From a virus: a stretch of DNA of 64,000 nt. The position numbers and the translations under genes are program-made. Of the stretch, positions 3,741 to 33,353 are shown one piece after another; the first letter of the stretch is position 1, and each line of letters begins with the position of its first letter. The notes under the pieces are model-generated. The model had not been told where the DNA came from. It did not search any database and saw nothing but the letters and a program-made list of their open reading frames with translations. The DNA lies in the IMG/VR virus record IMGVR_UViG_3300050506_000187, positions 1 to 64,000 of that record. One strand, given 5' to 3'.

Positions 3741-4640
3741 TTACTCCGCCGCAGTCTCCTCAGGAGCGCTGGCCGGGGTAATATCCCCGGTCTTAATCTG
3801 ATTCACGAACGCGAGCACTTCCGGCGTATTCTTGGCCGCAGGGACCGCGACCGGCACCCACGTTGAATTGCCAGTCTGCTTATACACCTGATTGCGGGTG
3901 CTCAGGCTGAAACTCATCGTCGGGTATCCCTTCAGAAGGCAACCCATCCGGCGTTGAGTGAAGAAAACCGCTTTAGCAACGCCAGTATAGGCAGTGCCCT
4001 TCAGCGCCAGCATGGCGATGGTGTATTTCTTGCCGCCAATTTCATAAACGAAAACGGTGTCATCGTCGGCGATGTGTTCCGGGCGCTCAATAAGGACGCC
4101 GAAATCCGCCAATTCTTCGAACCGTTTCATTCCGACGGTCTTTTTCAGTTTCCATTCATTGTAATCGAGAGTGCCGCCAGCGGCTCTGACTTCGTCTTCC
4201 GAATTGACGATGAGGTTTCGGACTCCCGGCGCGTAAACTTCCGGCTTCTCGACGTAACGAGTCGGACGGACTCCGAGGATCGTGATATTGACCGGCTTTG
4301 TCGCGGCGCGCCGAATCGTTCCGGACGCGGCATCGATGTCCGGCGGAATAAAAAGCGGCGTGGTGCGTCCAAGCACGATGGAGCCGGGAATAAAAGTATC
4401 CTTCAACTGTCCAGTATTGTGAACGAGGTTCACGCGAGGGAGGATAATGTCTTCGAAACCCGGGAGATCGTCATCACTCAGAAATTTGCGCGGAGACGAG
4501 ACGGGTTGAGGCGGGACGACGGCAACAGCGGTCCCGGGAACAGCCGCAGGCTTTGCGGCATCCGCTGCCGCAGCCTCGACCGGAGTCGCGACAATGGTCG
4601 TGACCGGAGTTTGATTTTTACCGAATTTAACTTCGCCCAT
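3741..4640 (-). CDS. hypothetical protein (possible ssDNA-binding/recombination partner, by position only)
   Basis: 299-aa ORF with an Ala/Pro-rich N-terminus. It sits between the Cas4-like exonuclease and the polymerase module. No motif recognised. Confidence 0.6.
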   Translation of the reverse strand: MGEVKFGKNQTPVTTIVATPVEAAAADAAKPAAVPGTAVAVVPPQPVSSPRKFLSDDDLPGFEDIILPRVNLVHNTGQLKDTFIPGSIVLGRTTPLFIPPDIDAASGTIRRAATKPVNITILGVRPTRYVEKPEVYAPGVRNLIVNSEDEVRAAGGTLDYNEWKLKKTVGMKRFEELADFGVLIERPEHIADDDTVFVYEIGGKKYTIAMLALKGTAYTGVAKAVFFTQRRMGCLLKGYPTMSFSLSTRNQVYKQTGNSTWVPVAVPAAKNTPEVLAFVNQIKTGDITPASAPEETAAE

Positions 4641-4649
4641 ATAGGTATT

Positions 4650-5828
4650 TTAGTTTGTGGTTGATGTTTGGTTTGTTTCCTTTTTAGCAACTGCTTTGAG
4701 GAAAGTGTATGGCTGACTTTCATCTGTCGCGCCCGCAGACGCGAGATGCTCTGCGAATTTTTCGACAGAGGCTTTTTTGTGCCCTCGTTCGGCCTTGAGC
4801 ATAATTGCTTTTTCGACTGCGCCGAACAAAATCTTTTTGGTATCGTTGTATTCGTCTTGCGTAAGATATTGCAAGGCGACTTTCTCAAACGCAACATCAT
4901 CGATGATTGCCCGGCGGGTTTGCGATACCAACATAAACCCTTCCGGAATCGGAACCGTGCCTTCGACAATTCGATTTGTTGCGAGTCGACGGTATCCATC
5001 GGCCCAAACCTTGACAACTTGTGCGAGCCGGAGCCCGAGGGTTGTATCTGCGGCAGAATGGATTTTGGTCGGCGTAATGTCTTCCGGAATTTCAATCGGA
5101 AAATATTTAGAGCCGACCTTGCAAACAAGGTCTGTAACCTTGGTGCAGGCTCCGATATTGCTGCAAAAATTGCAGGCCGGAATCATTGGCCGCGCCATAC
5201 TGAAATCGCCTTTGGCGACCTGCGCAGCAGCAATTTTAGCTTTTTCAACCGTAGCCCGGACCCGGGCATAGAGCCTCGGAATATCGGACCGAGTCCAAAT
5301 CACGTCTGTGATCAATTCAAGAGCCGGTTGTTTAAAGAAAAATCGAATCTGTTGCAGCGTCGGATACGTATGAAATAGCCCGAGAGCATACGCAATACCT
5401 TGCAAATTGTTCGGCGCAGGTTCGACCGGCCATCGACCGAATTTCCAGTCAATCAGTTCGGCATACGTTTGAGTCGGGTTCATCAATACGTGATCCACAT
5501 AGCCCGCTGTAGTATCCAGATCATCGACGGGAAGATAAACTTCTTTTATCTCAGTGCCCCCATCGAAAAACAAATTCTTCCGTTGCTGAACAAAATCAAG
5601 ACATTCAGCAACCATCGCCGCATGACCATCACTCAAGCGCGAATCATCCTTGCCCGATTCAACTGCCGAATGTGCAATCGTTCCTTCGATTGCCGCTTCG
5701 TTTGCTTCGCCGGAGGATTCGTAACAAGGGCACGCTTCGCGATTTTGCAGTGTGCTGGGGCTGAATCGATGATGTTTGCGTTCTGCAATCCACTCCCCGT
5801 AATCCTGATGTCGGCGGGACTCACTCAT
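4650..5828 (-). CDS. PD-(D/E)XK Cas4/RecB-like exonuclease
   Basis: N-terminal SPSTLQNREACPCYE, core D...ELIDWKFG (D-ExK), and a C-terminal CNFCSNIGAC cysteine cluster. Confidence 0.75.
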   Translation of the reverse strand: MSESRRHQDYGEWIAERKHHRFSPSTLQNREACPCYESSGEANEAAIEGTIAHSAVESGKDDSRLSDGHAAMVAECLDFVQQRKNLFFDGGTEIKEVYLPVDDLDTTAGYVDHVLMNPTQTYAELIDWKFGRWPVEPAPNNLQGIAYALGLFHTYPTLQQIRFFFKQPALELITDVIWTRSDIPRLYARVRATVEKAKIAAAQVAKGDFSMARPMIPACNFCSNIGACTKVTDLVCKVGSKYFPIEIPEDITPTKIHSAADTTLGLRLAQVVKVWADGYRRLATNRIVEGTVPIPEGFMLVSQTRRAIIDDVAFEKVALQYLTQDEYNDTKKILFGAVEKAIMLKAERGHKKASVEKFAEHLASAGATDESQPYTFLKAVAKKETNQTSTTN

Positions 5829-5901
5829 AGCAATTTATCATGGTCTTGATAATACCAATACAATACCACAAACACGACAAGAAAGATAACGATTTGTGCA
5901 A

Positions 5902-6132
5902 TCACATTACGACAATGACCGGAATCCGTTTTCCGTATTCTGCCTCCGGCGTAACGTCTTCGCCGTAGTCTTCCGTAAAACCCTTACCATCGAAAAGCGC
6001 GGTGGATTCCTCGATGTGAGCCTCCCGATACGAATGATCGGAGGACGGCACGACGATGAGCGCATTATCCGGCATCTTCGACACTTCCGCAAGGAATTGA
6101 AGTTTCGTCAAATGTTTGTGGATTCGGCTCAT
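5902..6132 (-). CDS. hypothetical protein
   Basis: 76-aa ORF with a 4-nt overlap to the upstream gene. Confidence 0.5.
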   Translation of the reverse strand: MSRIHKHLTKLQFLAEVSKMPDNALIVVPSSDHSYREAHIEESTALFDGKGFTEDYGEDVTPEAEYGKRIPVIVVM

Positions 6133-9254: not shown

Positions 9255-10715
9255 CTAATCTAGCACAAGATTGAGCCCTGTCAAATCGGCGTCCGTCAGC
9301 GAATCCAGATTATCGAGTTTCGCAGAGATAAGGCTATGCCGCCGCCGTTCGACCTGAGAGCCCTCGGCAAAGATGACTTGGTAAAAACTATCCGATTTAC
9401 CACCATGACGCGGAAGACGCCCGGTTAGCTGGCGAAAAAGCACCGCGCTGAACGGCGGGAAGACTAGACCCGCCCGGGGATGGCCCCCCGCAGCATCATC
9501 GAGGGAAATCGAGGCATTTCCGGCGGCATTGCTCAGGATGATGTCGGACTTCTCATTATTGCGAAATAATCGGACCGCCTCGTCTCGATCTCGAACGCCT
9601 TCCGGGCTTCCATCAATAAGCGCGGCATCGGGTATCCGTTCGCGTAACGCGGCAATCGTGCGCTGATAGTTTACGAACATCGCGACAGAAATCCCTCGGG
9701 CACGGTAATCTGCACGTAGCTCAAGCATCAGCGGCACTTTGAGCAGTTCAATTTCCTCCGAGGCGCGCAACATGCGCGTAAGCGGATGGTCCGGAGATTT
9801 GTCGGTTCGGTCGGCGCGAGAGCGAAGGTCGGCTAGATGAGTCGCCATTTCGGCATAAAGCGCATCCAATTTCTCGCCGGAACCGAGGTCGAAAAGTTCG
9901 GCCCTAATTTCGCACTTGGGAAAGTCGGGGATGTCGGACTTCCGGACGCGGATTCCTTTGGCCGGGAAAATCTGGGAATTGATTCCCGCCATGATGGCGC
10001 GCTGTTGCGCCTTGGATTTCATCCAGACGAGACCGCCGCCGGGAATCTTGCGATAGCCAAGGCGACTCAACCAAGGATAGAAATCCCCCAGTTTATGAAG
10101 TCCGAGGACATATCCGAGTGCCCGCAGGTCTGCGGGTTCAATCGCTGGTGTTGCTGACAAACCGATAACGCGGTGCCCTCCTCGCTTTGCGGCGATGAGC
10201 ATTTCGGCATTGAGGCTATCAGTTCCATTACATCGATGAACCTCGTCGAAGATGAGTAATGCCACTTCCGGGGAAAAATAAAATTTTCCAAGTCGTCGCG
10301 GAGACTTTCGCGTCTCAAAACAATGTATTCCATCTGGTCGTGTATAACAAGGATCGGCGGCAATTCCAGCCCCTTTATCCGGTTCAAAACGCCTTTGACA
10401 GTTAGTGCATACAAAATACTTCTTCGCGGGTTCAGGGGTATGCTCCCAACATCCGAAAGGCGTATTACCAGTTCGGAGGGCCTCGTATCCAATGACGGAA
10501 ATCTTATCGTCGAAAGCGGCGGCGGCGCGGTGCCAAGCTGAAATAGAAATTTTTGGAACGACTGCCAATGTAGGCAAACCCAGTTGCTTAGCCACGTAGG
10601 CCGCAATATAAGTTTTCCCAATTCCCATATCCGAGCCATCAAGAGCACTGGAAGACCGATGCAAAATATCGAGCAGATGCCCGGCGGGCGCGATTTGGTG
10701 CGGGCGTAGAGACAT
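9255..10715 (-). CDS. SF2 (DEAD/DEAH, SNF2-like) helicase
   Basis: GIGKTY (motif I), DEVH (II), SAT (III), QLTGRLPRHG (VI), and a CTNCQRRF insert. ATG at 10715 chosen; the ORF could extend to 10739 or 10790. Confidence 0.8.
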   Translation of the reverse strand: MSLRPHQIAPAGHLLDILHRSSSALDGSDMGIGKTYIAAYVAKQLGLPTLAVVPKISISAWHRAAAAFDDKISVIGYEALRTGNTPFGCWEHTPEPAKKYFVCTNCQRRFEPDKGAGIAADPCYTRPDGIHCFETRKSPRRLGKFYFSPEVALLIFDEVHRCNGTDSLNAEMLIAAKRGGHRVIGLSATPAIEPADLRALGYVLGLHKLGDFYPWLSRLGYRKIPGGGLVWMKSKAQQRAIMAGINSQIFPAKGIRVRKSDIPDFPKCEIRAELFDLGSGEKLDALYAEMATHLADLRSRADRTDKSPDHPLTRMLRASEEIELLKVPLMLELRADYRARGISVAMFVNYQRTIAALRERIPDAALIDGSPEGVRDRDEAVRLFRNNEKSDIILSNAAGNASISLDDAAGGHPRAGLVFPPFSAVLFRQLTGRLPRHGGKSDSFYQVIFAEGSQVERRRHSLISAKLDNLDSLTDADLTGLNLVLD

Positions 10716-22976: not shown

Positions 22977-23120
22977 ATGATTACATTCGTTTTTACAAAA
23001 CTCTTTGGAAAAGATTGGCATCAGAATCAGATCGCAGCTAATTCGATTCAGCAATTGTCCCTCTCGGCGTTATACCTCGCCGCCGCCGCAACCCTTCTTC
23101 GACTCGCGTTTAAACTATGA
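22977..23120 (+). CDS. 47-aa small hydrophobic ORF
   Basis: Below the ORF-track cutoff. It starts at the predicted transcription start and ends in an ATGA overlap with the HAD gene. Confidence 0.35.
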   Translation: MITFVFTKLFGKDWHQNQIAANSIQQLSLSALYLAAAATLLRLAFKL

Positions 23121-23461
23121 GTATCGCAGTTGACCTCGACGGAACGCTTGCGTATTACGACCATTGGCGCGGGCCGGAACATATCGGCGAGCCGATTCAG
23201 CCGATGATGGAGCGCGTCCGAGACTGGCTTGAGCAAGGACATGAGGTAGTAATCTTCACGGCCCGAATCACTCCGCATCCGGATTTTCCTACGGAAGATA
23301 CAGCGAGACTCCGCGACGGAGTCCGGATTATTCAGGACTGGCTTGAACAACATGGGCTACCTCGACTTCGGGTGACCAATATCAAAGACCCCGGGATGGA
23401 GGCTATTTGGGATGATCGCGCCGTGCGCGTTCGGGTTAATACAGGACTTATTGACCGATGA
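23117..23461 (+). CDS. HAD-superfamily phosphatase-like protein
   Basis: VDLDGTL (DxDxT) and VVIFTAR motifs. Confidence 0.6.
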   Translation: MSIAVDLDGTLAYYDHWRGPEHIGEPIQPMMERVRDWLEQGHEVVIFTARITPHPDFPTEDTARLRDGVRIIQDWLEQHGLPRLRVTNIKDPGMEAIWDDRAVRVRVNTGLIDR

Positions 23462-23676
23462 AAACCAAAAAATCTCCATTTCAATTTCGAATGGTCAACG
23501 TGTTCGGAAAACAATATCCCGCCATCGTCTTCGGGTTCCAGTATGCGCCGTTTATCTTTCGGGAATCGGCGAAAGCGGTCCTCGCCGATTTGAGCCGGAT
23601 GACTGCGGTGCAATCGCGGAAATCTTGGAAAGAATGGGGCCGGGCCTCACTTCGAACCCACAAACGAATTAAATGA
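23458..23676 (+). CDS. hypothetical protein
   Basis: 72-aa ORF with 4-nt overlaps on both sides. Confidence 0.5.
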   Translation: MKTKKSPFQFRMVNVFGKQYPAIVFGFQYAPFIFRESAKAVLADLSRMTAVQSRKSWKEWGRASLRTHKRIK

Positions 23677-24623
23677 GTATCTCATCTTATTCCTCGATTT
23701 TCAATCTCGGCCATCGGGCCATCGCCAATCTATTTTCGCGCCCGATCATCATCGAAGAAAAAATCGACGGGTCTCAATTTTCCTTCGGCGTCGATGAGTC
23801 CGGGACTCTGCACTGCCGCTCGAAAGGCAGCGAGATCAATCTGAGCGCCCCGGAGAAAATGTTTGCCGCCGGGGTGGAGTATGTTCAGTCGATTGCCGCT
23901 CGTCTGACTCCGGGTGATACATACCGTGGCGAATATTTGAAATCGCCGCATCATAATGCGCTTACGTATTCCCGCATTCCGCGCAACCACATTATTATTT
24001 TCGACATTGAAGCACCCGGTCAGAATTTTTATTCTCCTGCGGGAAAAGCCGCCGAGGCCGCACGTATCGGCCTCGAATGCGTTCCATGTTTCGCAAACTC
24101 CGCCGTTATTTCCGATCCGAACGAGTTACGCGCCTACCTCGACCGGGAATCGATACTCGGGGGTTGCAAGATCGAAGGCGTCGTAATCAAGCCCGCAGGT
24201 TACGATATGTTCAACATCGACAAAAAGGTGCTGCTTGCGAAATTTGTTTCCGAAGAATTCAAGGAAATTCACAACAAGACTTGGGACCGAGAGCACAAAA
24301 CGCCCGGCAGTAATGATGTCCTGACCTTGCTCAAGGCGAAGTATTCGACCGTCCCGCGCTGGCAGAAGGCCGTCCAGCACTTGACTGAGTCCGGCATTAT
24401 TACCGGCAACCTGACCGACATTCAGCACCTCATCAAGGAAATTCCCGCCGACGTCGAGCGGGAATGCAAAGCGCAGATAATGGAGGACCTATATGCATGG
24501 GCTTGGCCGCAACTGCGGCGAGGTCTCACCGCCGGTTTCCCGGAGTGGTATAAAGATCAACTCGTTCGTAAACAATTCAATGAAACCGAAAAAGAATCTG
24601 ACACAGTTAATGTCAGTCGTTAG
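23673..24623 (+). CDS. ATP-dependent RNA ligase-like nucleotidyltransferase
   Basis: EEKIDGSQFSF (KxDG), IIIFDIE, IEGVVIK, LLAKFVSEEFKE. Confidence 0.7.
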   Translation: MSISSYSSIFNLGHRAIANLFSRPIIIEEKIDGSQFSFGVDESGTLHCRSKGSEINLSAPEKMFAAGVEYVQSIAARLTPGDTYRGEYLKSPHHNALTYSRIPRNHIIIFDIEAPGQNFYSPAGKAAEAARIGLECVPCFANSAVISDPNELRAYLDRESILGGCKIEGVVIKPAGYDMFNIDKKVLLAKFVSEEFKEIHNKTWDREHKTPGSNDVLTLLKAKYSTVPRWQKAVQHLTESGIITGNLTDIQHLIKEIPADVERECKAQIMEDLYAWAWPQLRRGLTAGFPEWYKDQLVRKQFNETEKESDTVNVSR

Positions 24624-26117: not shown

Positions 26118-27046
26118 AAAAATTAGCTGGTGTTACTCTCGGATTTTTGTTGCTATTCGGACCGTCTCTCCTCGTCGGCGCGTTGCGATTGCGCGAATCG
26201 ATTCCCGATACAAAACCCAAAGAAAATATTATCACCCGGGCACAGGAATCAACGGTCCGGGTCCAAGCACCGGATGGAACCGGCTCCGGGTTCGTGATTG
26301 CGCGTAAAGACGTTCGCACTCATCAGTCGCGATATTTTGTTTGGACGGCGCGCCACGTAACTCAGCCGAACTTTCCTGACCTGAAGGTTGAGAAAATTAT
26401 CCGGTGGAATCAGACTAACCGGGTTACGTATACCTATGCGGCGCATACTCTCGTCCGGCTCGCTGATACGGATGCCGCGCTGCTCGCCGTCGACGCGCCG
26501 CCCGGCGCATTTGCGGGAGTTGACGTTTATACGTCAGAAATTTCTGTCGGGGATTCGATCTTCGTTATCGGAAGTCCACTCGGGGATTTCGACGGTTCCG
26601 TCTCGGTCGGGATTCTGTCTCAACGGGATTCTCATCCGACGCACGTCGAAGGATGGCCGTGGGCTCTCGTCGATCAAACGGACGCGCGAGTACTGCCGGG
26701 CAGTTCCGGCGGTCCGGTTTTTGAACGGTCAGGAAAAGTGGTCGGAATCATCGTCGGCGGTCCGAACCAAGGTATGCTGGGCATTTCGCATTTCGTTCCG
26801 CTGCGCGCAATTCGTTCGGACTCGGTGTATTCCGGTATTCAATGGGCGTTATATGGAAATCTTTGTCCAGACGATGCGGCGATTTCCGCCGCAATTATTG
26901 CCGTCGCGAAGATGGATGCGCTGCTTGAGGCTTCAGCCAAAAAGGCCGCAGAGGATAATCAACCAAAGGCCGAACCGGTGAAGCCGGGAACGGGTTCTGT
27001 GGTCAACCCACCGAGACCGGCGCACTGGTGGAATCGATCTCATTAA
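26114..27046 (+). CDS. secreted trypsin-like (S1) serine protease
   Basis: ATGA overlap with the fibre gene. Signal peptide MKKLAGVTLGFLLLFGPSLLVGA. Catalytic triad contexts TARHV, DTDAALLAV, PGSSGGPVF. Confidence 0.75.
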   Translation: MKKLAGVTLGFLLLFGPSLLVGALRLRESIPDTKPKENIITRAQESTVRVQAPDGTGSGFVIARKDVRTHQSRYFVWTARHVTQPNFPDLKVEKIIRWNQTNRVTYTYAAHTLVRLADTDAALLAVDAPPGAFAGVDVYTSEISVGDSIFVIGSPLGDFDGSVSVGILSQRDSHPTHVEGWPWALVDQTDARVLPGSSGGPVFERSGKVVGIIVGGPNQGMLGISHFVPLRAIRSDSVYSGIQWALYGNLCPDDAAISAAIIAVAKMDALLEASAKKAAEDNQPKAEPVKPGTGSVVNPPRPAHWWNRSH

Positions 27047-27237
27047 AATTTCCGGTTGTTGCGCCAGAGCAGGTAAGCTTTTTTCTTCCAGCAGTTGCAT
27101 TCCGACTCATCTACTGGGGGAGTATATTTCGGATGTCGATTCGGCAAACACGATTTTGATTTTTGAAATTTGCAATCCGGATGGTGAGAACCAAATCGGA
27201 TTGCATCGCTTAGAACGAAATTCAGTTCAGCATTCAT
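27043..27237 (-). CDS. hypothetical Cys/His-rich small protein
   Basis: 64-aa ORF, convergent with the protease gene. Confidence 0.45.
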   Translation of the reverse strand: MNAELNFVLSDAIRFGSHHPDCKFQKSKSCLPNRHPKYTPPVDESECNCWKKKAYLLWRNNRKF

Positions 27238-27545
27238 GGGATTCTCAACGATTGTAACGCCGCGATGTGCGTATCGATGGCGAGATTGAGCGTAGTCTTG
27301 GCTTCGACTTCAGTTCGGAATACGCGCTCCGGGGGCCACGACATCGAAAATTCGTATTCGGCTTTGCGGCACGTAATAAAAGTTTCTCCATTCTTCATCG
27401 ATACTCCTTCGAATATACGTTGCTGAACGCTCGCGCTCGGGGTTCGATCCGTGCTCTTTCCATTCGGATTGAAAAAATAAATCCAAACCTTCGTCCCGAT
27501 TTTCGGAAGTTTTTTAATGTCAATCATGGACTCAATATAGCACAT
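27234..27545 (-). CDS. hypothetical protein
   Basis: ATG at 27545; the ORF extends to a TTG at 27554. Confidence 0.5.
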   Translation of the reverse strand: MCYIESMIDIKKLPKIGTKVWIYFFNPNGKSTDRTPSASVQQRIFEGVSMKNGETFITCRKAEYEFSMSWPPERVFRTEVEAKTTLNLAIDTHIAALQSLRIP

Positions 27546-27564
27546 CGGTTCCAACTGTCAAGTG

Positions 27565-27580
27565 CCTGACTTTAAAATGT
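27565..27580 (+). promoter_or_regulatory. rightward start-proximal motif, variant instance 3 (CCTGACTTTAAAATGT)
   Basis: Followed by an ATG at 27581. Confidence 0.35.
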
Positions 27581-27802
27581 ATGGCTACATTATCAGCAGC
27601 GAATAGCAAAGAGATTCAGGCAGTCATTGACTACATCGTGAAGTCGAACGCCCCGCAGCTTCCTTTCGACGCAACCGCAATCGAGCGACTCGCGCGGGTT
27701 GCCGCGTCGGTCGGTTTTGAGGGCGCAGGCAACTTCAAAGAGGATGCCAAAAATAGTCCAATCACGACCCTGCTTGCTCTTGCGAAGTTTTTGGGGACTT
27801 AA
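27581..27802 (+). CDS. hypothetical protein
   Basis: 73-aa ORF. Confidence 0.5.
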   Translation: MATLSAANSKEIQAVIDYIVKSNAPQLPFDATAIERLARVAASVGFEGAGNFKEDAKNSPITTLLALAKFLGT

Positions 27803-27836
27803 TAGTCTTCATTAGGACAACTTAAATAGTTTTCGT

Positions 27837-27865
27837 CCGCCGGAAAGTGTTAGACTTTTCGGCGG
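27837..27865 (+). terminator. strong hairpin (11-bp stem, 7-nt loop), terminator-like
   Basis: CCGCCGGAAAG-tgttaga-CTTTTCGGCGG followed by ATTGTGTT. The U-tract is imperfect. Confidence 0.45.
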
Positions 27866-27884
27866 ATTGTGTTATGGTGATAGC

Positions 27885-28014
27885 GGTCGGGTGCCGGAAT
27901 CGGAAAAGACGGAGAATTCATCGGTCGCCGAATGCTGAACGTTTATGCGCCGGTTGTGCAATGCCGTAAAGGCTGATGAAGGATGTGGTGGTTCGAACCC
28001 ACCCCCGACCACCA
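27885..28014 (+). ncRNA. tRNA-like element A (130 nt, oversized core, encoded CCA)
   Basis: Perfect 7-bp acceptor stem GGTCGGG/CCCGACC. Type-II-like D arm TGCCGGAATCGGAAAAGACGG. Canonical T arm GGTGG-TTCGAAC-CCACC, then A-CCA. There are 74 nt between the D and T arms, and I could not draw an anticodon arm. Confidence 0.3.
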
Positions 28015-28019
28015 ATTTT

Positions 28020-28559
28020 ATGAAGAAATTATTCACAATCCTCGGAATGTTTTTGTTGATGGCCAGCGCTTTGCGCGCCGCGCCCGCGTGCATCACTAAC
28101 GTAACGCTGTCTTTCTCCGGCGTAAAATTCGGAGTGCCCGCAGGCGACAACGGCGGATTCGTCACCAACGGTAATTCTCTCGTCGGCGTCGGGCTGTTAT
28201 CGCTCTGCACCCCTAGCGGATGCGACGGTCCGGAAATCATCATCGTCCCGAAGGAGCCCCGCTCTCCGAACGATCCGGATATTCAGTGCGCGAATCATTC
28301 AACGCAAATCGGTGTGCTGACGTGGAAATGTGATCCTTCGTGTGACCCATCCGGCGACACGCACGTTGCCAGCATTATTTTTCCGCCCAACGCCCTCAGT
28401 CTCTCTTTTCATATCTGCATTAATCCGGACAGCAATTGCGGGCTGTATCTCGGATGCTTTACCGCCGTCGCGTGCTCCGCGCCTCCGCCGGAATCATGTC
28501 GAATTGAAGAACGATTTCGTATCGAGAGTTACCCGCGCAATCTTATCGCTGCACGATAA
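28020..28559 (+). CDS. secreted Cys-rich protein
   Basis: ATG at 28020. Signal peptide MKKLFTILGMFLLMASALRAAPA. Many cysteines. Confidence 0.6.
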   Translation: MKKLFTILGMFLLMASALRAAPACITNVTLSFSGVKFGVPAGDNGGFVTNGNSLVGVGLLSLCTPSGCDGPEIIIVPKEPRSPNDPDIQCANHSTQIGVLTWKCDPSCDPSGDTHVASIIFPPNALSLSFHICINPDSNCGLYLGCFTAVACSAPPPESCRIEERFRIESYPRNLIAAR

Positions 28560-28560
28560 C

Positions 28561-28917
28561 ATGCAAAAACTTTGTATACTCATCGCGCTCATGGCCATAC
28601 TCTCCTCAAATGCCGACCAGCCGATTACGGAGGAAGAAGCGATTCCGGTTCTCGCGAATTTATTTTCGTATGCAGACCTTGAGTGGGACCCATCTCCGGA
28701 CGAGTCCGTAATCGGATATAAAATTTATTTCGGGCATGAATCCGGGCGGTATACCTCCGTCGTCGATGTTGGCAACGTTAAGCAAGCGCGAATCGATCTC
28801 GGAGAACTATCGAATAATCGCACTTGGTTCATCGCTGCGACATCATACGATGATGCGGGCCTTGAGTCCGACTTCAGCAACGAAGTCAAGGTTGAAGAAG
28901 CGCGAGGCCCGCAATGA
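28561..28917 (+). CDS. secreted fibronectin type III-like domain protein
   Basis: Signal peptide MQKLCILIALMAILSS. LEWDPSPDESVIGYKIYFG...WFIAATSYDDAGLESDFSNEV. Confidence 0.65.
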   Translation: MQKLCILIALMAILSSNADQPITEEEAIPVLANLFSYADLEWDPSPDESVIGYKIYFGHESGRYTSVVDVGNVKQARIDLGELSNNRTWFIAATSYDDAGLESDFSNEVKVEEARGPQ

Positions 28918-29072
28918 AAGAATTTTTCGGCGCACTCGGTTTGATCTTCATACTACTGGCGCAAGTCCTGCTCGGATTGCTGGCGACTTATTTTTTCGCG
29001 GTGTTCGCAATCCTCGTTGGCGGCGCAATTCGGGATTTGCTGAGCCATAAAAAACATGACTCTGATTGTTGA
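28914..29072 (+). CDS. 52-aa membrane peptide
   Basis: Below the ORF-track cutoff. ATGA overlap. MKEFFGALGLIFILLAQVLLGLLATYFFAVFAILVGG... Confidence 0.4.
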   Translation: MKEFFGALGLIFILLAQVLLGLLATYFFAVFAILVGGAIRDLLSHKKHDSDC

Positions 29073-29103
29073 CAAATTAACGCCGATGTGTTAGGATTCT
29101 GGT

Positions 29104-29319
29104 ATGAAGAAAAAATTGAAACTTTACGTATGGACGGAGTTCAAAGTTGATTATACGCCCGGCCTTGCGTTTGCCATCGCCGATTCGGAAGACGAAGCGA
29201 AGAAAATGCTTGAGAAAAAAGGTGTCCGTGTTTTTGGGGGTAACTACAGTTGTTGGGGTGATCTTACGGTGCATCCACTCACTAAAAAAATCGCTGAGTT
29301 TGTTTACGGAGGCGGGTAG
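29104..29319 (+). CDS. hypothetical protein
   Basis: 71-aa ORF. Confidence 0.5.
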   Translation: MKKKLKLYVWTEFKVDYTPGLAFAIADSEDEAKKMLEKKGVRVFGGNYSCWGDLTVHPLTKKIAEFVYGGG

Positions 29320-29322
29320 CCC

Positions 29323-30180
29323 ATGAATGTGTTTTCGTATCTCCGAGTTTCCGGTCTTGGCCAAGTGGACAAGGACGGTCCAGTTCGTCAACGGTTGAGT
29401 ATCAAAGCTTTCGCAGACCGATTTAATTTGATCATCCTGCAAGAGTTTTTTGATGAGGGAGTATCCGGAACGGTCGAGTGTATGGAGAGACCCGGGTTCG
29501 CTGATATGATTACGAAGGTAATCATTTCCCAGAATACTCCGTTCCCGGTTGAGGCAATCGTCGTCGAATGCATGGACCGGCTCGCGCGCGATTTGATGAT
29601 TTCCGAAATGCTGCTGAAGACGTGTCGCGATAATCAAGTTAAAGTATTCTGTTCGGTCGACAGTGGGCTCGTGGATGTGGCCTCGGAAGCAGATCAAAAC
29701 CGAACCATGCTCAGACAAATTTTGGCAATCGTCGCGCAGTGGGACAAAACGAATACCGTGAAAAAATTACTAAGTGCGCGTTTGCGGGCGCGCGCCGAAG
29801 GTCGTCGTTGCGAAGGCAGCAAACCGTATGGACATTTTCCCTCTGAGCAAATAGTGTTGGCGCGGATGAAAACGTTGCATCGCGAGATGTCGCTCTCAGA
29901 GTTAGCGTTTACACTCAACACGGAAGGATTTAGAAATCGGGCTGGTCGTCAGTGGACGAAAGCGTCAGTGTATTCAATATTAACCGGTCAGTCATTGGCT
30001 GCAACCAGAAAAGAAAGAAAAAACAATGCGAGGCGCATACATGCAATATCTCAGGGCGAAGGGCTCACCCCCGGCGCTGAAATCTGCGGACCCGGTGGAA
30101 CAAGCGCATGCGTTGCGCAAGGAGCAAGCGGAATTGCGCAGAGCGCGAATCCTCAATCGGGCAGAGCCGTCAATGCGTAA
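29323..30180 (+). CDS. serine recombinase (resolvase/invertase catalytic domain plus recombinase-domain segment)
   Basis: FSYLRVSGLGQ, MDRLARD, LNTEGFRNRAGRQWTKASVYSIL. Confidence 0.8.
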   Translation: MNVFSYLRVSGLGQVDKDGPVRQRLSIKAFADRFNLIILQEFFDEGVSGTVECMERPGFADMITKVIISQNTPFPVEAIVVECMDRLARDLMISEMLLKTCRDNQVKVFCSVDSGLVDVASEADQNRTMLRQILAIVAQWDKTNTVKKLLSARLRARAEGRRCEGSKPYGHFPSEQIVLARMKTLHREMSLSELAFTLNTEGFRNRAGRQWTKASVYSILTGQSLAATRKERKNNARRIHAISQGEGLTPGAEICGPGGTSACVAQGASGIAQSANPQSGRAVNA

Positions 30181-30198
30181 CGGAAAATAATTTTTTTA

Positions 30199-30289
30199 GT
30201 CGGGTTAGCTCAAAGGTAGAGCCCCGCGCCGTAGTAGGCTTTTCACCGAAACGGGGCGGAGGTTGATGGTTCGAGTCCTTCACCCGACT
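30199..30289 (+). ncRNA. tRNA-like element 1 (91 nt, no drawable anticodon arm)
   Basis: Acceptor stem GTCGGGT/ACCCGAC (perfect). D arm GCTC-AAAGGTA-GAGC. T arm GATGG-TTCGAGT-CCTTC. The 42-nt central segment has no 5-bp/7-nt stem-loop. Confidence 0.35.
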
Positions 30290-30298
30290 TCTTCTATT

Positions 30299-30373
30299 TG
30301 CAGGGTGGCGCAGTGGCAGCGCGGCGCGCTCATAACGCGCAAGTCGTCGGTTCGATTCCGGCCCCTGCACCCA
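30299..30373 (+). tRNA. tRNA with CAT anticodon (Met or Ile2), CCA encoded
   Basis: Hand-folded cloverleaf: TGCAGGG/CCCTGCA acceptor stem; GCGC-AGTGGCA-GCGC D arm; GCGCG-CTCATAA-CGCGC anticodon arm; AAGTC variable loop; GTCGG-TTCGATT-CCGGC T arm; then C-CCA. Confidence 0.85.
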
Positions 30374-30377
30374 ATTT

Positions 30378-30491
30378 GGCCGGTTAGCTCAATATATTCA
30401 GAGCACCGCCCTTAAGCGGGGTGTGAGATGTATACGATTTCACACTTGCGCAAGGGAGGGGACGGGGGTGAAAATCCTTCACTGACCGCCA
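30378..30491 (+). ncRNA. tRNA-like element 3 (114 nt, degenerate)
   Basis: Acceptor stem GGCCGGT/ACTGACC (1 mismatch, 1 GU) followed by G-CCA. D arm GCTC...GAGC. Possible arm CGCCC-TTAAGCG-GGGTG. A 7-bp hairpin insert GTGTGAG...TTCACAC. Non-canonical T loop TGAAAAT. Confidence 0.25.
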
Positions 30492-30517
30492 ATTTTCTAG
30501 TCCGGTTCTCTTTTTTC

Positions 30518-30533
30518 CCTGACTATTAGGGGA
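30518..30533 (+). promoter_or_regulatory. rightward start-proximal motif, instance 4 (CCTGACTATTAGGGGA)
   Basis: Followed immediately by a TTG at 30534. Confidence 0.45.
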
Positions 30534-30857
30534 TTGAAGATACTCACGACTTTTGTCCCGGAATCCGCCCCGATTCTCAAAACATGGGCTGCAAGCTGGC
30601 GGGGTCATGGCTGGACCCCCGGATTGCTGGCCCCCAAGGAGATTCAAAAACATCGCAAATTACGGGCTGCCGTCGCCGCCCGGCGCGGTCGTCTTTTTTG
30701 CAGTGCTTACCTAATCAATTTTGGTCTTCGCCGGGCTCCGCGTTCGCTCCGGACCTTCATTCGAAAATTCGGGTCCCCGGGGTGGGATACCGCAAAACTA
30801 GTCCTTTTTCCCGCCGGGACTACTTCAGAGCAGATCGAAAACTGTGGACATCGCTGA
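30534..30857 (+). CDS. hypothetical protein (small terminase candidate by position only)
   Basis: 107-aa ORF immediately upstream of, and overlapping, the large terminase gene. Confidence 0.45.
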   Translation: MKILTTFVPESAPILKTWAASWRGHGWTPGLLAPKEIQKHRKLRAAVAARRGRLFCSAYLINFGLRRAPRSLRTFIRKFGSPGWDTAKLVLFPAGTTSEQIENCGHR

Positions 30858-32784
30858 ACGAACAAAACTTTCGGCCATCGTCGCAAAGCACGTCCAATCC
30901 GCTGAACCGTGGATTGCCGCGCAAGCGATTTCTGACTTTGCGCAAATCAATGTCCGGTATACCCGCGATTCGCGGCCAGAAAAACTGAACGAGATTTTGC
31001 AGAGTTACTTACATGGACTATTGAATAATAACGGCATGTCGGAAGCCGCGAGTATACTTTGGACTCCGACGCAATTCACCGCTGGGCCCAATTCGGTTAA
31101 ATCGGTATGGGAACTTTTCGAGTCCTCATCTGCGGGTTTGATTATGGGAGCCGCTGCTCTCGGAAAATCTTTTTCGATGGGAGTCCGGCTTATGCTGGAA
31201 TGGATCAGAGACCCGGAGTATACGGGCATTCGCGTCATCGGCCCAAGCGAAGACCATCTTGAGCAAAATCTTTTTTCGCATCTCGTAAGTTTGCACGCAC
31301 AAGCGAGCCTACCCATGCCCGGAGAAGTCGGAGATTTATTCATCGGCACCAATCGTCGAAATCAAACGGCGGCGATTCGCGGCATCGTTGTTCCGAAGGG
31401 CAATAACAAAAAGGCAGGACGCCTGCAAGGCGGACACCGAAAGCCTCGCCCGAAACCCCATCCGATTTTCGGACCGCTGACGCGGATGTTTATTTTCATC
31501 GACGAAATCGAAAACGTTCCGGCAGGTATTTGGCACGATGTCGGCAACGTGCTCAGCGAAGTCGGTCCTGACGGAGGATTCAAAATTTTCGGCGCGTATA
31601 ACCCGACGAATCTAGGAGATGAAGTCGCAAAACAGGCGGAACCTCCTTTCGGATGGCCGAATGTTGACGTCAATATTCATTATAAATGGAAGTCTACTCG
31701 CGGATGGGATGTAATCCGTCTCGACGCCGAAAAATGTGAAAACGTAATCGCCGGAAAAGTGATATATCCCGGGCTGCAAACGCGCGAAGGGCTTGCGAAG
31801 ATTGCTCTGTCGTCCGGTGGAACGCAATCTGCGGGATATTACACCATGGGTCGGGGAATGTATCCGCAGCAGGGCATGCAAGCGACATTGATACCCTCCG
31901 GCATGCTGGAAAAAAGTCGCGCGAAATTTATTTGGTATGATGACAAGCAAGTTCGCGTAGGCGGATGCGATTTAGCGCTTGAAGGCGGGGACGATGCGGT
32001 ATATGCGTTAGGAAAATGGGGGCTCGCAACCGGTATTCAGTATCCGCCGACGCTTGAAAAACCGGATGGATTCAAGATCATGTTCAAAGATGAAAAGGGA
32101 CGAGTTCGGGCGCGGCACGGATTGCAAATCGAGAGCCTGATGATTATTCCGAAGGGCGATACCGTCGCAATCAAAGACCGTATCATCAAATTTAACAAGA
32201 ACGCAGGTGTCCGCCCAGAGTTTTTTGCGTGTGATCGAACCGGTGTAGGGGCCGGTGCTGCCGATTTGATACGCCATGAGTGGTCTCCTTCGATTCACGA
32301 CATAAATTATTCCTCCGGGGCCTCCGATTCTCGAATTATGTCGGAGCACAGCAAGACATGCGCCGACGAATATGATCGGCTTGCAACCGAAATTTGGTTC
32401 CGGCTCCGGTTCTGGCTTGAATTTGGGTTCGCGCTTTTCGATCCGGGCATGGATATGAGCAAGGTCGGACAGCAATTAACGCAACGACGGCAGCTTAGCT
32501 CCGGTTCGAAGGCCAAAATTGAGTCCAAACGGGATTACGAATCGCGCGGATTCGCGTCTCCGAATGAAGCGGACGCGATTACGCTGCTCGTTCACGCGGC
32601 ACATCGCGGTTCCGGCGTGACCCCAAGCATGGACGGCGGGTCTCAAATACCGGAAAACCCGTGGGAAGATGATTGGCCGCACTCGGGCATGCAGGGCGGA
32701 GTAAAAATTGATTTATCAAACCGTTCTGACTGGCTGGACGACCGCCCCGAATCAGCGGAGCCGGGAGAATTTGCGATTTTATGA
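30844..32784 (+). CDS. terL: terminase large subunit
   Basis: Walker A-like GAAALGKS, Walker B MFIFIDEIE, and a C-terminal nuclease-type GCDLALEGGDDAVYALG. Confidence 0.85.
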   Translation: MDIAERTKLSAIVAKHVQSAEPWIAAQAISDFAQINVRYTRDSRPEKLNEILQSYLHGLLNNNGMSEAASILWTPTQFTAGPNSVKSVWELFESSSAGLIMGAAALGKSFSMGVRLMLEWIRDPEYTGIRVIGPSEDHLEQNLFSHLVSLHAQASLPMPGEVGDLFIGTNRRNQTAAIRGIVVPKGNNKKAGRLQGGHRKPRPKPHPIFGPLTRMFIFIDEIENVPAGIWHDVGNVLSEVGPDGGFKIFGAYNPTNLGDEVAKQAEPPFGWPNVDVNIHYKWKSTRGWDVIRLDAEKCENVIAGKVIYPGLQTREGLAKIALSSGGTQSAGYYTMGRGMYPQQGMQATLIPSGMLEKSRAKFIWYDDKQVRVGGCDLALEGGDDAVYALGKWGLATGIQYPPTLEKPDGFKIMFKDEKGRVRARHGLQIESLMIIPKGDTVAIKDRIIKFNKNAGVRPEFFACDRTGVGAGAADLIRHEWSPSIHDINYSSGASDSRIMSEHSKTCADEYDRLATEIWFRLRFWLEFGFALFDPGMDMSKVGQQLTQRRQLSSGSKAKIESKRDYESRGFASPNEADAITLLVHAAHRGSGVTPSMDGGSQIPENPWEDDWPHSGMQGGVKIDLSNRSDWLDDRPESAEPGEFAIL

Positions 32785-33353
32785 AATCGATTAACCCAAA
32801 TTTGTATCCGCACGACGGAAGATTTTTCATCGATTCCGACGGCGCACGAATTTCCGGCGATACGTGGGCCGGAGTGATTCGCAGAGTTGAAGGATACCGC
32901 CGCCGACAGGGCCGACCGGTTGGCGACGTCGCCGCCGAAGTCACGGCTCAAGCGTGCCAGCGTAATCCGGTTATCTGCACCGAAGATAACGCAGCGTATA
33001 AACAGGAATTGCGAAAATCGTCGCTCAAATCTCGGGTGCTCGCGTGGTTTTCCGCGTTTATACACCAAGTGCAGAGTAGCCCGCCGACTTTTTCGTCGGA
33101 GAATGACGCACGCAACCGCGCAAACGTGTGCGCCGGGTGTCCACTCAATACCGCGCTGCCGGATGGATGCTCGTCATGCAAGGCGGCACTAAACGAAATG
33201 CGAAAATCGGTCATAGGAGGCCGTTTTCAAGACCAGAGAATCCATGCGTGCAACGCGCTTAGCGAAGATTTGAATACGGTCGTCTGGATTGAACAAACTA
33301 CGGTCGAAAATCCGGCACTTCCCGGACATTGTTGGCGAAAACGAACGGTATGA
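32781..33353 (+). CDS. hypothetical Cys-rich protein
   Basis: 190-aa ORF with an ATGA overlap to terL. Confidence 0.6.
   Translation: MKSINPNLYPHDGRFFIDSDGARISGDTWAGVIRRVEGYRRRQGRPVGDVAAEVTAQACQRNPVICTEDNAAYKQELRKSSLKSRVLAWFSAFIHQVQSSPPTFSSENDARNRANVCAGCPLNTALPDGCSSCKAALNEMRKSVIGGRFQDQRIHACNALSEDLNTVVWIEQTTVENPALPGHCWRKRTV

Follow-up and report, generated by a model that had tools for sequence, protein, structure and literature searches.

What does a phage make from a gene that begins and ends like a transfer RNA (tRNA) and has no anticodon arm in the middle? The question is raised by three elements in a stretch of viral DNA of 64,000 nucleotides (positions 1 to 64,000 of the IMG/VR virus record IMGVR_UViG_3300050506_000187; hereafter the window), which is part of an environmental (soil) phage contig of about 71.6 kb. 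Element A (positions 27885-28014, 130 nt), Element 1 (30199-30289) and Element 3 (30378-30491) all lie on the plus strand, as does the gene for the large terminase (TerL), and an elongator-type tRNA(CAU) with a U1-A72 pair and an encoded CCA (30299-30373, plus strand) sits between Elements 1 and 3. An original prediction, made from the sequence alone, had described the three as tRNA ends and a tRNA elbow joined to middles that are not those of a tRNA, and its coordinates, arm sequences and core sizes were confirmed on the sequence. The elements have complete tRNA frames and replaced anticodon domains, and they belong to a recurrent, strand-consistent and co-varying family beside a conserved tRNA(CAU). 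We think there is an even chance that, as their sequences suggest, they are expressed genes for non-decoding, tRNA-derived RNAs.

Complete tRNA frames around replaced anticodon domains

A 7-bp acceptor stem, a D arm and a T arm follow one another in cloverleaf order in all three elements, with 7/7, 7/7 and 6/7 acceptor pairs and 5/5, 4/5 and 5/5 T-stem pairs in Elements A, 1 and 3, respectively. The stretch from the D arm to the T arm is 74, 42 and 59 nt long, compared with 22-23 nt in a normal tRNA, and none of these cores contains a 5-bp anticodon stem with a 7-nt loop carrying U33 and a purine at position 37. The elements were compared with the Rfam tRNA model (RF00005, gathering score 29 bits), with ARAGORN, and with a covariance model of the lineage (R1), which was trained on 35 tRNA and tRNA-like sequences of related phages together with the window tRNA(CAU), Elements A, 1 and 3 all being absent from the training set. 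The tRNA(CAU), the conserved member of the cluster, is the textbook tRNA it had been taken for (Rfam, 62.2 bits; R1, 87.7 bits; ARAGORN call, tRNA-Met). For the other three no program returned an ordinary fold: the models skip 24-40 nt in Elements 1 and 3, and Element A has no match to the Rfam tRNA model at E ≤ 10. Because independent models detect the frames and depart from the sequence in the anticodon region only, we regard the frames as those of tRNAs, and the predicted anatomy is correct. The only other match of R1 in the 64-kb window was weak (11.1 bits, E 0.6); the original observation was thus complete as well as correct, since no further clear tRNA-like element came to light.

The anticodon arm is replaced by a long irregular hairpin in Elements 1 and 3 and by a multi-hairpin core in Element A. 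Element 1 has an acceptor stem GTCGGGT/ACCCGAC, a D arm GCTC-AAAGGTA-GAGC, a T arm GATGG-TTCGAGT-CCTTC with one U.U mismatch, a U73 and no encoded CCA. In a constrained fold its anticodon stem is extended as a rod of 9 bp with one G.G mismatch and an 18-nt loop (30224-30259). It scores 46 bits with the Rfam tRNA model, above the gathering score, with 28 nt where the 9 nt of an anticodon loop are expected, and 42.9 bits (E 1.7e-10) with R1, and ARAGORN labels it 'tRNA-???' with a 2-nt 'anticodon'. We listed all single excisions after which a 7-nt loop with U33 and a purine at 37 would stand on a 5-bp stem with at least 4 pairs formed, and there was no solution in Element 1, in its homologues of the related loci L035 and L028, or in L043b. 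The statement that no anticodon arm can be drawn in Element 1 therefore holds, both for the sequence as it stands, in which the models skip 28 nt, and after any such excision.

The homologues of Element 1 are found at L035 5564-5644 (the same sequence is present in L036 and L047; TerL 64% identical to that of the window), L043 314-423 (TerL 66% identical) and L028 2501-2596 (TerL 53% identical), and like Element 1 they have no encoded CCA. The D loop and a 22-nt block of variable loop and T arm are identical or nearly so across them, the block AGGTTGATGGTTCGAGTCCTTC being identical at 22/22 nt between Element 1 and L035, and their acceptor strands differ by changes that are compensated. Element 1 and every homologue have the rod, the rod sequences are unrelated, and the loops are of 3-7, 15 and 18 nt (the last in Element 1): the L035 rod has eight pairs, the same G.G mismatch and a 7-nt loop that two additional pairs would reduce to 3 nt, that of L028 has 10 bp and a 15-nt loop, and that of L043 is a 12-bp perfect palindrome. 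At least the Element 1 frame is under purifying selection, and no simple excision from it would give a decoder. An anticodon arm that is too long by 3 bp or more would not, by established tRNA geometry, span the decoding and peptidyl-transferase centres. Searching IMG/VR with a pattern made from the Element 1 T arm returned only contigs already in the locus set and a tRNA(CAU).

The insert in the L043 homologue has the palindrome core GTATTATATATAATAC (L043 355-370), which also makes up a terminator-like hairpin just after the tRNA(CAU) in L038 (157-172) and L039 (750-765). Its presence at two kinds of site suggests palindrome transfer, by recent insertion or recombination.

Element 3 has the acceptor GGCCGGT/ACTGACC with one C.A mismatch, a G73 and an encoded GCCA, and its 5' end is like that of Element 1 at 15 of 18 nt. 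In folds its core forms one irregular rod of about 21 bp (30406-30459) that includes a near-perfect hairpin (30421-30445). The Rfam tRNA model gives it 28.6 bits, just under the gathering score, with a 40-nt insertion, and R1 gives it 34.5 bits (E 5.8e-8). The T loop, which had been called degenerate, is indeed odd (TGAAAAT) and accompanies a D loop without GG, but degeneracy is not what the lineage suggests. A D loop without GG goes with a non-TTC T loop across 55 elements (counts 37/4/2/12; Fisher p 3e-7), and TGAAAAT or TTAAAAT loops with GG-less D loops also occur in the genuine tRNA(CAU) of L016/L006 and L024/L010. Since this coordinated variant occurs in genuine tRNA(CAU) genes, the T loop of Element 3 is not a sign of decay, and the whole looks like an alternative elbow. 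The locus L043 has the same order as the window, namely an Element 1-like element, the tRNA(CAU) and a 111-nt tRNA-like element (717-827) directly before the homologue of the 107-aa gene that follows Element 3. This third element has G73, an acceptor GGTCGGG/CCTGACC and a 61-nt rod-forming core that does not align with that of Element 3, and we treat it as a positional homologue.

Two further observations concern these cores. The Element 1 loop AGGCTTTTCACC (30236-30247) is complementary at 11 of 12 positions to GGTGAAAATCCT in the T stem and loop of Element 3 (30467-30478); both segments are predicted to be exposed, and the length of the complementarity is within chance for the region. TTAA occurs within DNA palindromes (CTTAAG, GTTAAC, ATTAAT, TTTAAG) in many aberrant anticodon-region loops (window 30410-30416; L098 about 2805-2818; L025 about 5458-5466; L044 about 4086-4094; L035 about 5594-5602; L043 about 378-384).

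Element A is framed like a tRNA-Leu, with a perfect acceptor (GGTCGGG/CCCGACC), a type-II-like D arm (CCGG/ACGG), a T arm GGTGG-TTCGAAC-CCACC, and an encoded ACCA that supplies A73 and the CCA (28012-28014). It shares the acceptor core GTCGGG/CCCGAC with Element 1, as had been noted and as is real. R1 matches it through its 3' half only (15.9 bits, E 0.022), and ARAGORN sees it in intron mode only, as a Thr(TGT) tRNA that has a long variable arm and is interrupted by a 34-nt intron. The likeness to a tRNA-Leu frame lies in the first 19 nt of the element (GGTCGGGTGCCGGAATCGG), and a degenerate pattern retrieved canonical tRNA-Leu(CAA) and tRNA-Leu(TAG) genes in unrelated viral contigs (L129/L140 and L135) and five distinct aberrant elements with a Leu-type acceptor and D arm around alien cores of up to about 75 nt (L133 5276-5375, which equals L141; L138 11329-11456; L143 about 9700-9790; L144 1078-1178; L145 2770-2879). 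The contigs that carry these elements hold large tRNA arrays with further oversized tRNA matches, which makes the phenomenon wider than this lineage; no counterpart to the aberrant Leu-framed or oversized elements was found in annotated phage records, nor did exact and degenerate patterns of the 3' ends of Elements A and 3 find a homologue in IMG/VR. As the leucyl-tRNA synthetase of E. coli does not read the anticodon, and given A73 and the Leu-type D arm, it is conceivable that Element A would be charged with leucine. Two motifs within Element A were considered and rejected. CTGATGA was read as a hammerhead, for which there is no GAAA, no stem geometry and no Rfam ribozyme match, and AAGGATGT as a CsrA-like site, the four GGA motifs per 130 nt being not above chance.

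A promoter-like site (27850-27878, plus strand) stands immediately before Element A, with TTAGAC (27850-27855), 17 nt, TATGGT (27873-27878) and then 6 nt to the first G of the element, which would be the transcription start (27885). This call rests on synteny because a consensus scan places the site below threshold: an alignment of the same place in relatives (A3) has a hairpin, TTGnnn/TTGAC, about 17 nt, TATnGT, 5-7 nt and then an ATG of leaderless type, so that Element A starts exactly where relatives have a leaderless gene start. The hairpin of the window (27835-27867, plus strand; 14 bp, from a terminator-like scan) follows a conserved gene of 73 aa and overlaps the -35-like hexamer with its loop and 3' arm, and equivalent hairpins stand before the promoter in relatives too. 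At the other end of Element A, an ATTTT trailer (28015-28022, plus strand) runs directly into the first accessory open reading frame (ORF), with only the 5 nt ATTTT between the CCA and the ATG of ORF 28020-28559, which encodes a signal-peptide protein. In the accessory-gene block of L031, L032, L034, L035 and L040 a -10 element stands 5-7 nt ahead of the ATG, and leaderless mRNAs appear to be implied for this block in the lineage.

A recurrent family beside tRNA(CAU)

The TerL of this phage has hundreds of relatives, mostly on environmental contigs of about 70 kb and at closest 64-68% identical. No similar cultured phage was found, a blastn search of positions 27000-33000 against 50,697 phage records returning generic tRNA-Met only, and a genome-collection scan for the host gave one 4-kb contig binned to a Chlamydiales metagenome-assembled genome, which is too little for a host name.

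Across about 110 related loci (0.94 Mb), R1 gave 73 matches at the cut-off of E ≤ 0.05, and all 73 are on the terminase strand. These represent 58 distinct sequences, of which about 33 have a CAU-type loop (32 with CTCATAA or CCCATAA, and a near-identical TTCATAA pair in L080 and L109 that was counted once). The remaining 24 or so are mostly aberrant, some having an anticodon loop of 6 or 8 nt and others a rod, an oversized core or no D arm; other canonical tRNAs number a handful, and across the lineage the aberrant forms outnumber the canonical non-Met tRNAs. Twenty-one different acceptor 5' strands occur in 22 aberrant elements (Elements A, 1 and 3 included), and the strands pair at 93% of positions within an element and at 45% when cross-paired, the former value being somewhat inflated by an optimisation of the acceptor frames within a few nt. 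Among these elements the frame is conserved and the core is not.

The flanks are conserved as well. (A/T)TTT follows the encoded CCA in 39/46 elements, for a tetramer background of 1.7%; Element A, the tRNA(CAU) and Element 3, which are among them, are each followed by ATTT, and in the window only 16 of 668 CCA triplets precede (A/T)TTT. That aberrant elements and genuine tRNA have common flanking signals argues that the same machinery handles both. The window elements have what marks the lineage set: they are on the terminase strand, upstream of the terminase, detected by R1, and followed by (A/T)TTT after an encoded CCA, which Element 1 lacks in common with its homologues. Relatives also have arrays of seven or more consecutive elements with no ORFs in between.

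Several other noncoding features accompany these elements in the lineage. In distant relatives, tandem arrays of RNA-like units separated by ATTT(A/T) lie upstream of the terminase (L008/L019 1180-1665; L025 5608-6360; L022 4140-4600; L013 5445-5810), and many of the units start with GGGGC, end with GCTCCACCA, and have a G3.U70 pair and terminal helices of 11-15 bp. The G3.U70 pair is found in transfer-messenger RNA (tmRNA) and tRNA-Ala, and one unit (L022, about 4397-4490) has a 3' end that presumably differs very little from the E. coli tmRNA end; no tmRNA is called at these arrays by ARAGORN. A noncoding block that is conserved over about 200-250 nt and contains TTCGCGCGAATGAAACGTTGT lies between the tRNA(CAU) and the element arrays (L008 about 1215-1400; L013 about 5495-5690; L025 about 5790-5970); it is absent from the window, and its L008 copy has no Rfam match at E ≤ 5. 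Another such block, GACTGCATGAAGCTGCCGCGAAAGTTGGCA.GGTCTAAACAGTC..., follows the tRNA(CAU) in L002 (3110-3290), L006 (2766-3370) and L010 (2530-2760), also with no Rfam match at E ≤ 5, and in L006 it is inside a 304-nt unit, GTCGGGCG...CGCCCGGCTCCA-ATTTT, with acceptor-like ends. Some variants of the tRNA(CAU) itself keep the (C/T)TCATAA loop, the T arm and the CCA and have lost the D arm or have a short hairpin instead (L027 1791-1862; L071 2858-2929; L100 3897-3967; L117 3896-3967; L080 4732-4804; L109 4499-4571), and these resemble the armless tRNAs of mitochondria.

Proposed expression as non-decoding RNAs, and the alternatives

If the elements are expressed as non-decoding RNAs, transcription would run on the terminase strand, with Element A made from the start site of the conserved promoter as the 5' end of its operon and Elements 1 and 3 co-transcribed with the tRNA(CAU) from the interval that separates resolvase and terminase. 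The intact frame would allow the tRNA-processing pathway of the host to excise them, presumably with RNase P at the 5' end; at the CCA-encoding Elements A and 3 cleavage of RNase E type within the (A/U)UUU trailer and subsequent trimming would form the 3' end, and at Element 1 this would fall to RNase Z and CCA addition. Stable RNAs would result, 90-130 nt long and unable to read codons, and their excision would split the transcript, leaving after Element A a near-leaderless mRNA that starts 5 nt ahead of the AUG. As tRNA-body mimics they could occupy a factor that recognises tRNA, such as a processing enzyme or a host enzyme of defence or toxin type whose target is the elbow or the acceptor end; alternatively, the inserted hairpin could be displayed on a nuclease-resistant scaffold. 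Such a decoy or scaffold role is the function that we favour for the three RNAs, although taken by itself we consider it somewhat unlikely. The mimic or decoy idea had been raised in the original prediction and is, in its general form, compatible with everything seen; the anticodon nucleases named there are an unlikely target for RNAs that have lost precisely the anticodon loop.

Several points weigh against the elements being expressed and selected as RNAs. Some of the closest relatives (L038-L041) carry the tRNA(CAU) only, so the elements are dispensable, and ARAGORN gave no tRNA in the part of L037 that was searched. In nhmmer searches Element A had no sequence-level homologue in any of the lineage loci and Element 3 had none in the fetched loci, so that selection on these two is indicated by intact stems, flanks and one positional homologue, and the inflation of the own-pairing value given above counts here too. 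No partner protein or target was found; antisense matches of the cores in the window are 10-11-mers, at most about twice the shuffled expectation and not above chance; and nothing specific was found in the literature on phage tRNA-like decoys or anti-defence RNAs. Finally, Elements 3 and A do admit excision solutions, and other phages have insertion-bearing tRNAs that can be restored to an anticodon loop.

This last point leads to the reading that some of the elements, mainly 3 and A, are intron-like tRNA genes, from which a nuclease removes the hairpin and the halves are rejoined, possibly by the phage RNA ligase, to yield decoding tRNAs. ARAGORN builds a tRNA-Thr(UGU) with a 34-nt intron from Element A in intron mode and, at a relaxed threshold, a tRNA-Ala(CGC) with a 35-nt intron from Element 3, and the enumeration of excisions with U33 and a purine at 37 gives several solutions for Element 3 and one for Element A. 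In the unrelated contigs, L135 12670-12783 is readable as a Leu(UAA) tRNA interrupted by a 30-nt hairpin (the enumeration finds such solutions and others), and L129 5416-5571 is readable by inspection as a Tyr(GUA) tRNA with about 80 nt after position 37. The phage also has an RNA ligase and a PNKP-like phosphatase, the latter weakly supported. Group I and bulge-helix-bulge introns of tRNAs are likewise extra sequences in or near the anticodon loop that extend the anticodon helix.

Against this, Element 1 and its homologues in L035 and L028, as well as L043b, have no excision solution at all. The solutions for Element 3 are mutually inconsistent (UAA, GCA, UCA, CGC) and need a G.A mismatch in the stem, and the one for Element A leaves an odd variable region of 22 nt. 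In Element 3 the sequence CTTAAGC could be read as an anticodon loop (UAA), its flanks CCGCC/GGGGT pairing at 3/5 positions only; with this and the several solutions, an intron-like reading of that element is conceivable. No group I, other intron or ribozyme family was found by an Rfam scan of 27600-30800 at E ≤ 10, in which the group I core P3-P9 is absent, and group I introns, usually longer than 200 nt, are much larger than these inserts of about 20-40 nt. No 3-4-3 bulge-helix-bulge was seen on inspection of the folds, which are continuous or irregular rods (that of Element 3 has an AA bulge, 3 bp and a G bulge); no splicing endonuclease is among the window ORFs that were scanned; and the insert sequences are not conserved between homologues. 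The intron idea of the original prediction therefore does not hold for Element 1 and two of its three homologues and finds no intron family, with Elements 3 and A ambiguous, and we regard it as unlikely. Its most specific form, in which a nuclease excises the rod and the phage Rnl-type ligase and PNKP-like phosphatase reseal the halves, we judge to be very unlikely; if true, it would amount to enzymatic tRNA splicing outside archaea and eukaryotes and might act as a switch, decoding tRNAs being made during infection only.

The closest published precedent for such genes is the tRNAs of Lak megaphages, whose 'enigmatic introns' were, according to the authors, the first to be described from tRNAs of a phage (Devoto et al. 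2019, PMC6784885). These too are oversized phage tRNA genes that are unclassifiable with bacterial settings and can be drawn only by ignoring an insertion in the anticodon region, and one of them is also a Thr(TGT) call (PMC6784885). The Lak genes were presented as decodable tRNAs with introns, and their inserts are identical across cohorts (PMC6784885), whereas in these soil phages of about 70 kb, which use the standard code, no anticodon loop can be restored in Element 1 or in two of the three homologues and the inserts are fully divergent.

The elements could also be decaying or disabled tRNA paralogues, hit for example by a palindrome, that are still excised by the tRNA machinery and have no function of their own. 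Their patchy distribution, with some of the closest relatives reduced to the tRNA(CAU) and L037 without a tRNA call, fits this, as do the lack of sequence conservation in the cores, the lack of sequence homologues for Elements A and 3, and the L043 insert, a perfect palindrome whose core is shared with the terminator hairpin of L038 and L039. Yet the stems are intact in all three elements, the T region of Element 1 and L035 is identical at 22/22 nt despite a TerL identity of 64%, acceptor changes are compensated, the processing trailer is conserved, and aberrant forms outnumber the canonical non-Met tRNAs of the lineage. The intact, co-varying stems, the conserved flanks and the conserved homologues of Element 1 disfavour the earlier suggestion of decayed genes, which we hold to be improbable.

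Another reading makes the elements cis-acting punctuation, in which the folds recruit RNase P, Z or E to split the recombinase from the terminase mRNA and to leave a near-leaderless mRNA after Element A, the excised RNA being a by-product. Element A does lie exactly between the putative start site and the ATG of a gene that is of leaderless type in relatives, with the 5-nt ATTTT between its CCA and that ATG, and the cluster of Element 1, tRNA(CAU) and Element 3 lies between two operon halves where no terminator or promoter is predicted. A single tRNA(CAU) would suffice for this purpose, however; relatives have ORF-free arrays of up to seven or more elements, and the replacement of the anticodon arm by rods of conserved size is left unexplained. 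We find this reading quite unlikely.

The weakest reading is that they are sites in DNA, either attP or recombination remnants of a cassette that entered a tRNA gene, or targets of the terminase or of the serine recombinase; the adjoining recombinase and terminase genes, the GTCGGG/CCCGAC common to Elements A and 1, and the position of tRNA-like elements inside or at the edge of a variable block in the window and L034 speak for it, but it is extremely unlikely, since the recombinase is a syntenic core gene of resolvase/invertase type, all matches are on one strand, the common motif of 6-7 nt is of chance length with no longer flank repeats, and the frames are full length rather than tRNA fragments, with both acceptor strands, G18G19/T-loop pairs and RNA-type compensation including G.U, which would be meaningless at the DNA level. 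The remnant idea of the original prediction is accordingly unsupported.

Codon supply and escape from anticodon nucleases are the usual explanations for tRNA genes in phages. Here a lineage of environmental phages of about 70 kb keeps one decoding tRNA(CAU) and, around it, what would be fast-evolving RNAs that have dropped the codon-reading part of a tRNA and kept only what processing and acceptor-end enzymes read. If they are indeed expressed as non-decoding RNAs, they would be natural 'tRNA scaffolds' or tRNA-body mimics that could reveal the defence toxin, processing enzyme or synthetase they engage, and a compact and tractable counterpart to RNAs such as species 1 and 2 of T4 and the oversized megaphage tRNAs. 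ARAGORN labels the aberrant elements 'tRNA-???', Ile(AAT), Phe(AAA) or Thr with an intron; standard annotation thus misses or mislabels them, and censuses of phage tRNAs are biased as a result.

Known tRNA-like RNAs and neighbouring genes

The elements were checked for the defining features of known classes (tRNA proper, group I introns, bulge-helix-bulge introns, tmRNA and YrlA), and they belong to none of these because such features are lacking. tmRNA shares with the elements a tRNA-like module of acceptor and T arm, the lack of an anticodon arm and an encoded CCA, and differs in that the window elements have D arms and contain no frame for a tag peptide; ARAGORN, run at its default threshold, reports no tmRNA among them. 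None has a G3.U70 pair, the bases at 3-70 being U-A in Element A, C-G in Element 1 and C.A in Element 3; some relatives' elements do have the tmRNA-like GGGGC...GCTCCACCA ends. In YrlA, a bacterial Y-RNA-like RNA, an elbow module of acceptor, D and T arms carries a long helix in place of the anticodon arm, and its genes are often near those of RNA repair ligases, in phages too; its topology is permuted, with the RNA ends in the long stem and the acceptor closed by a loop. A match to the YrlA model (RF02553) scored 17.5 bits for a gathering score of 69 and spans the T arm of the tRNA(CAU) and the D arm of Element 3, which makes it an artefact of adjacent modules. A C/D-box or k-turn reading was also rejected, the snoU82P match of 13.5 bits being far below threshold and due to chance.

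Within its tRNA cluster T4 encodes the stable RNAs species 1 and 2 (rnaC and rnaD), which measure about 120-140 nt, are co-processed with the tRNAs, have tRNA-like CCA termini and have no known function; the analogy, like that of YrlA, is a functional one, and these RNAs are not described as having complete D and T arms around a rod. In engineered tRNA scaffolds and in the TMERs of murine herpesvirus 68 (MHV68), a tRNA body gives correct processing and stability to a hairpin that replaces or follows the anticodon arm, and these RNAs do not decode. The scaffolds are artificial and the TMERs belong to a eukaryotic virus that relies on RNA polymerase III and tRNase Z, and we know of no natural tRNA scaffold from a bacterial virus.

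The original prediction also had the elements bracket a serine-recombinase cassette, which does not stand. The gene at 29323-30180 (plus strand) encodes a small serine recombinase of resolvase/invertase type (PF00239, 1.1e-17; phrog_95 and phrog_125), and a resolvase gene lies upstream of the terminase in all six relatives that show the region (L031, L032, L033/L034, L035, L037 and L040), so it is a core gene and not cassette cargo. What varies is the accessory block at 28020-29319 (plus strand), with four small ORFs for a secreted Cys-rich protein, an FN3-like protein, a membrane peptide and a 71-aa protein. Loci L033 and L034 have identical TerL and are collinear except for an interval of small ORFs that runs from the conserved promoter to the resolvase start, where identity resumes, and this interval corresponds to window 28020-29319. 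No direct or inverted repeats beyond chance length join the flanks of the block.

About 40 window ORFs were scanned against Pfam or PHROGs. The predicted RNA ligase was confirmed (23673-24623, plus strand; PF09414, 4.2e-10; phrog_548, 2.9e-21) and lies about 3 kb upstream of Element A, and the accompanying phosphatase is a 114-aa HAD/PNKP-like ORF (23117-23461, plus strand) that matches phrog_415 (1e-9) and phrog_1238 (1.9e-11), with Pfam HAD below threshold, so that this assignment is weak. Among these ORFs there was no splicing endonuclease, CCA-adding enzyme or Ro60/TROVE homologue. Directly downstream of Element 3 are the conserved 107-aa gene and the large terminase gene (30534-32784, plus strand). 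One homologue from the terminase search, P0097 (977 aa), is about 330 aa longer and has precomputed matches to PF05204 and PF05203, which we take to be intein and homing-endonuclease domains and which suggest an intein in the large terminase of a relative.

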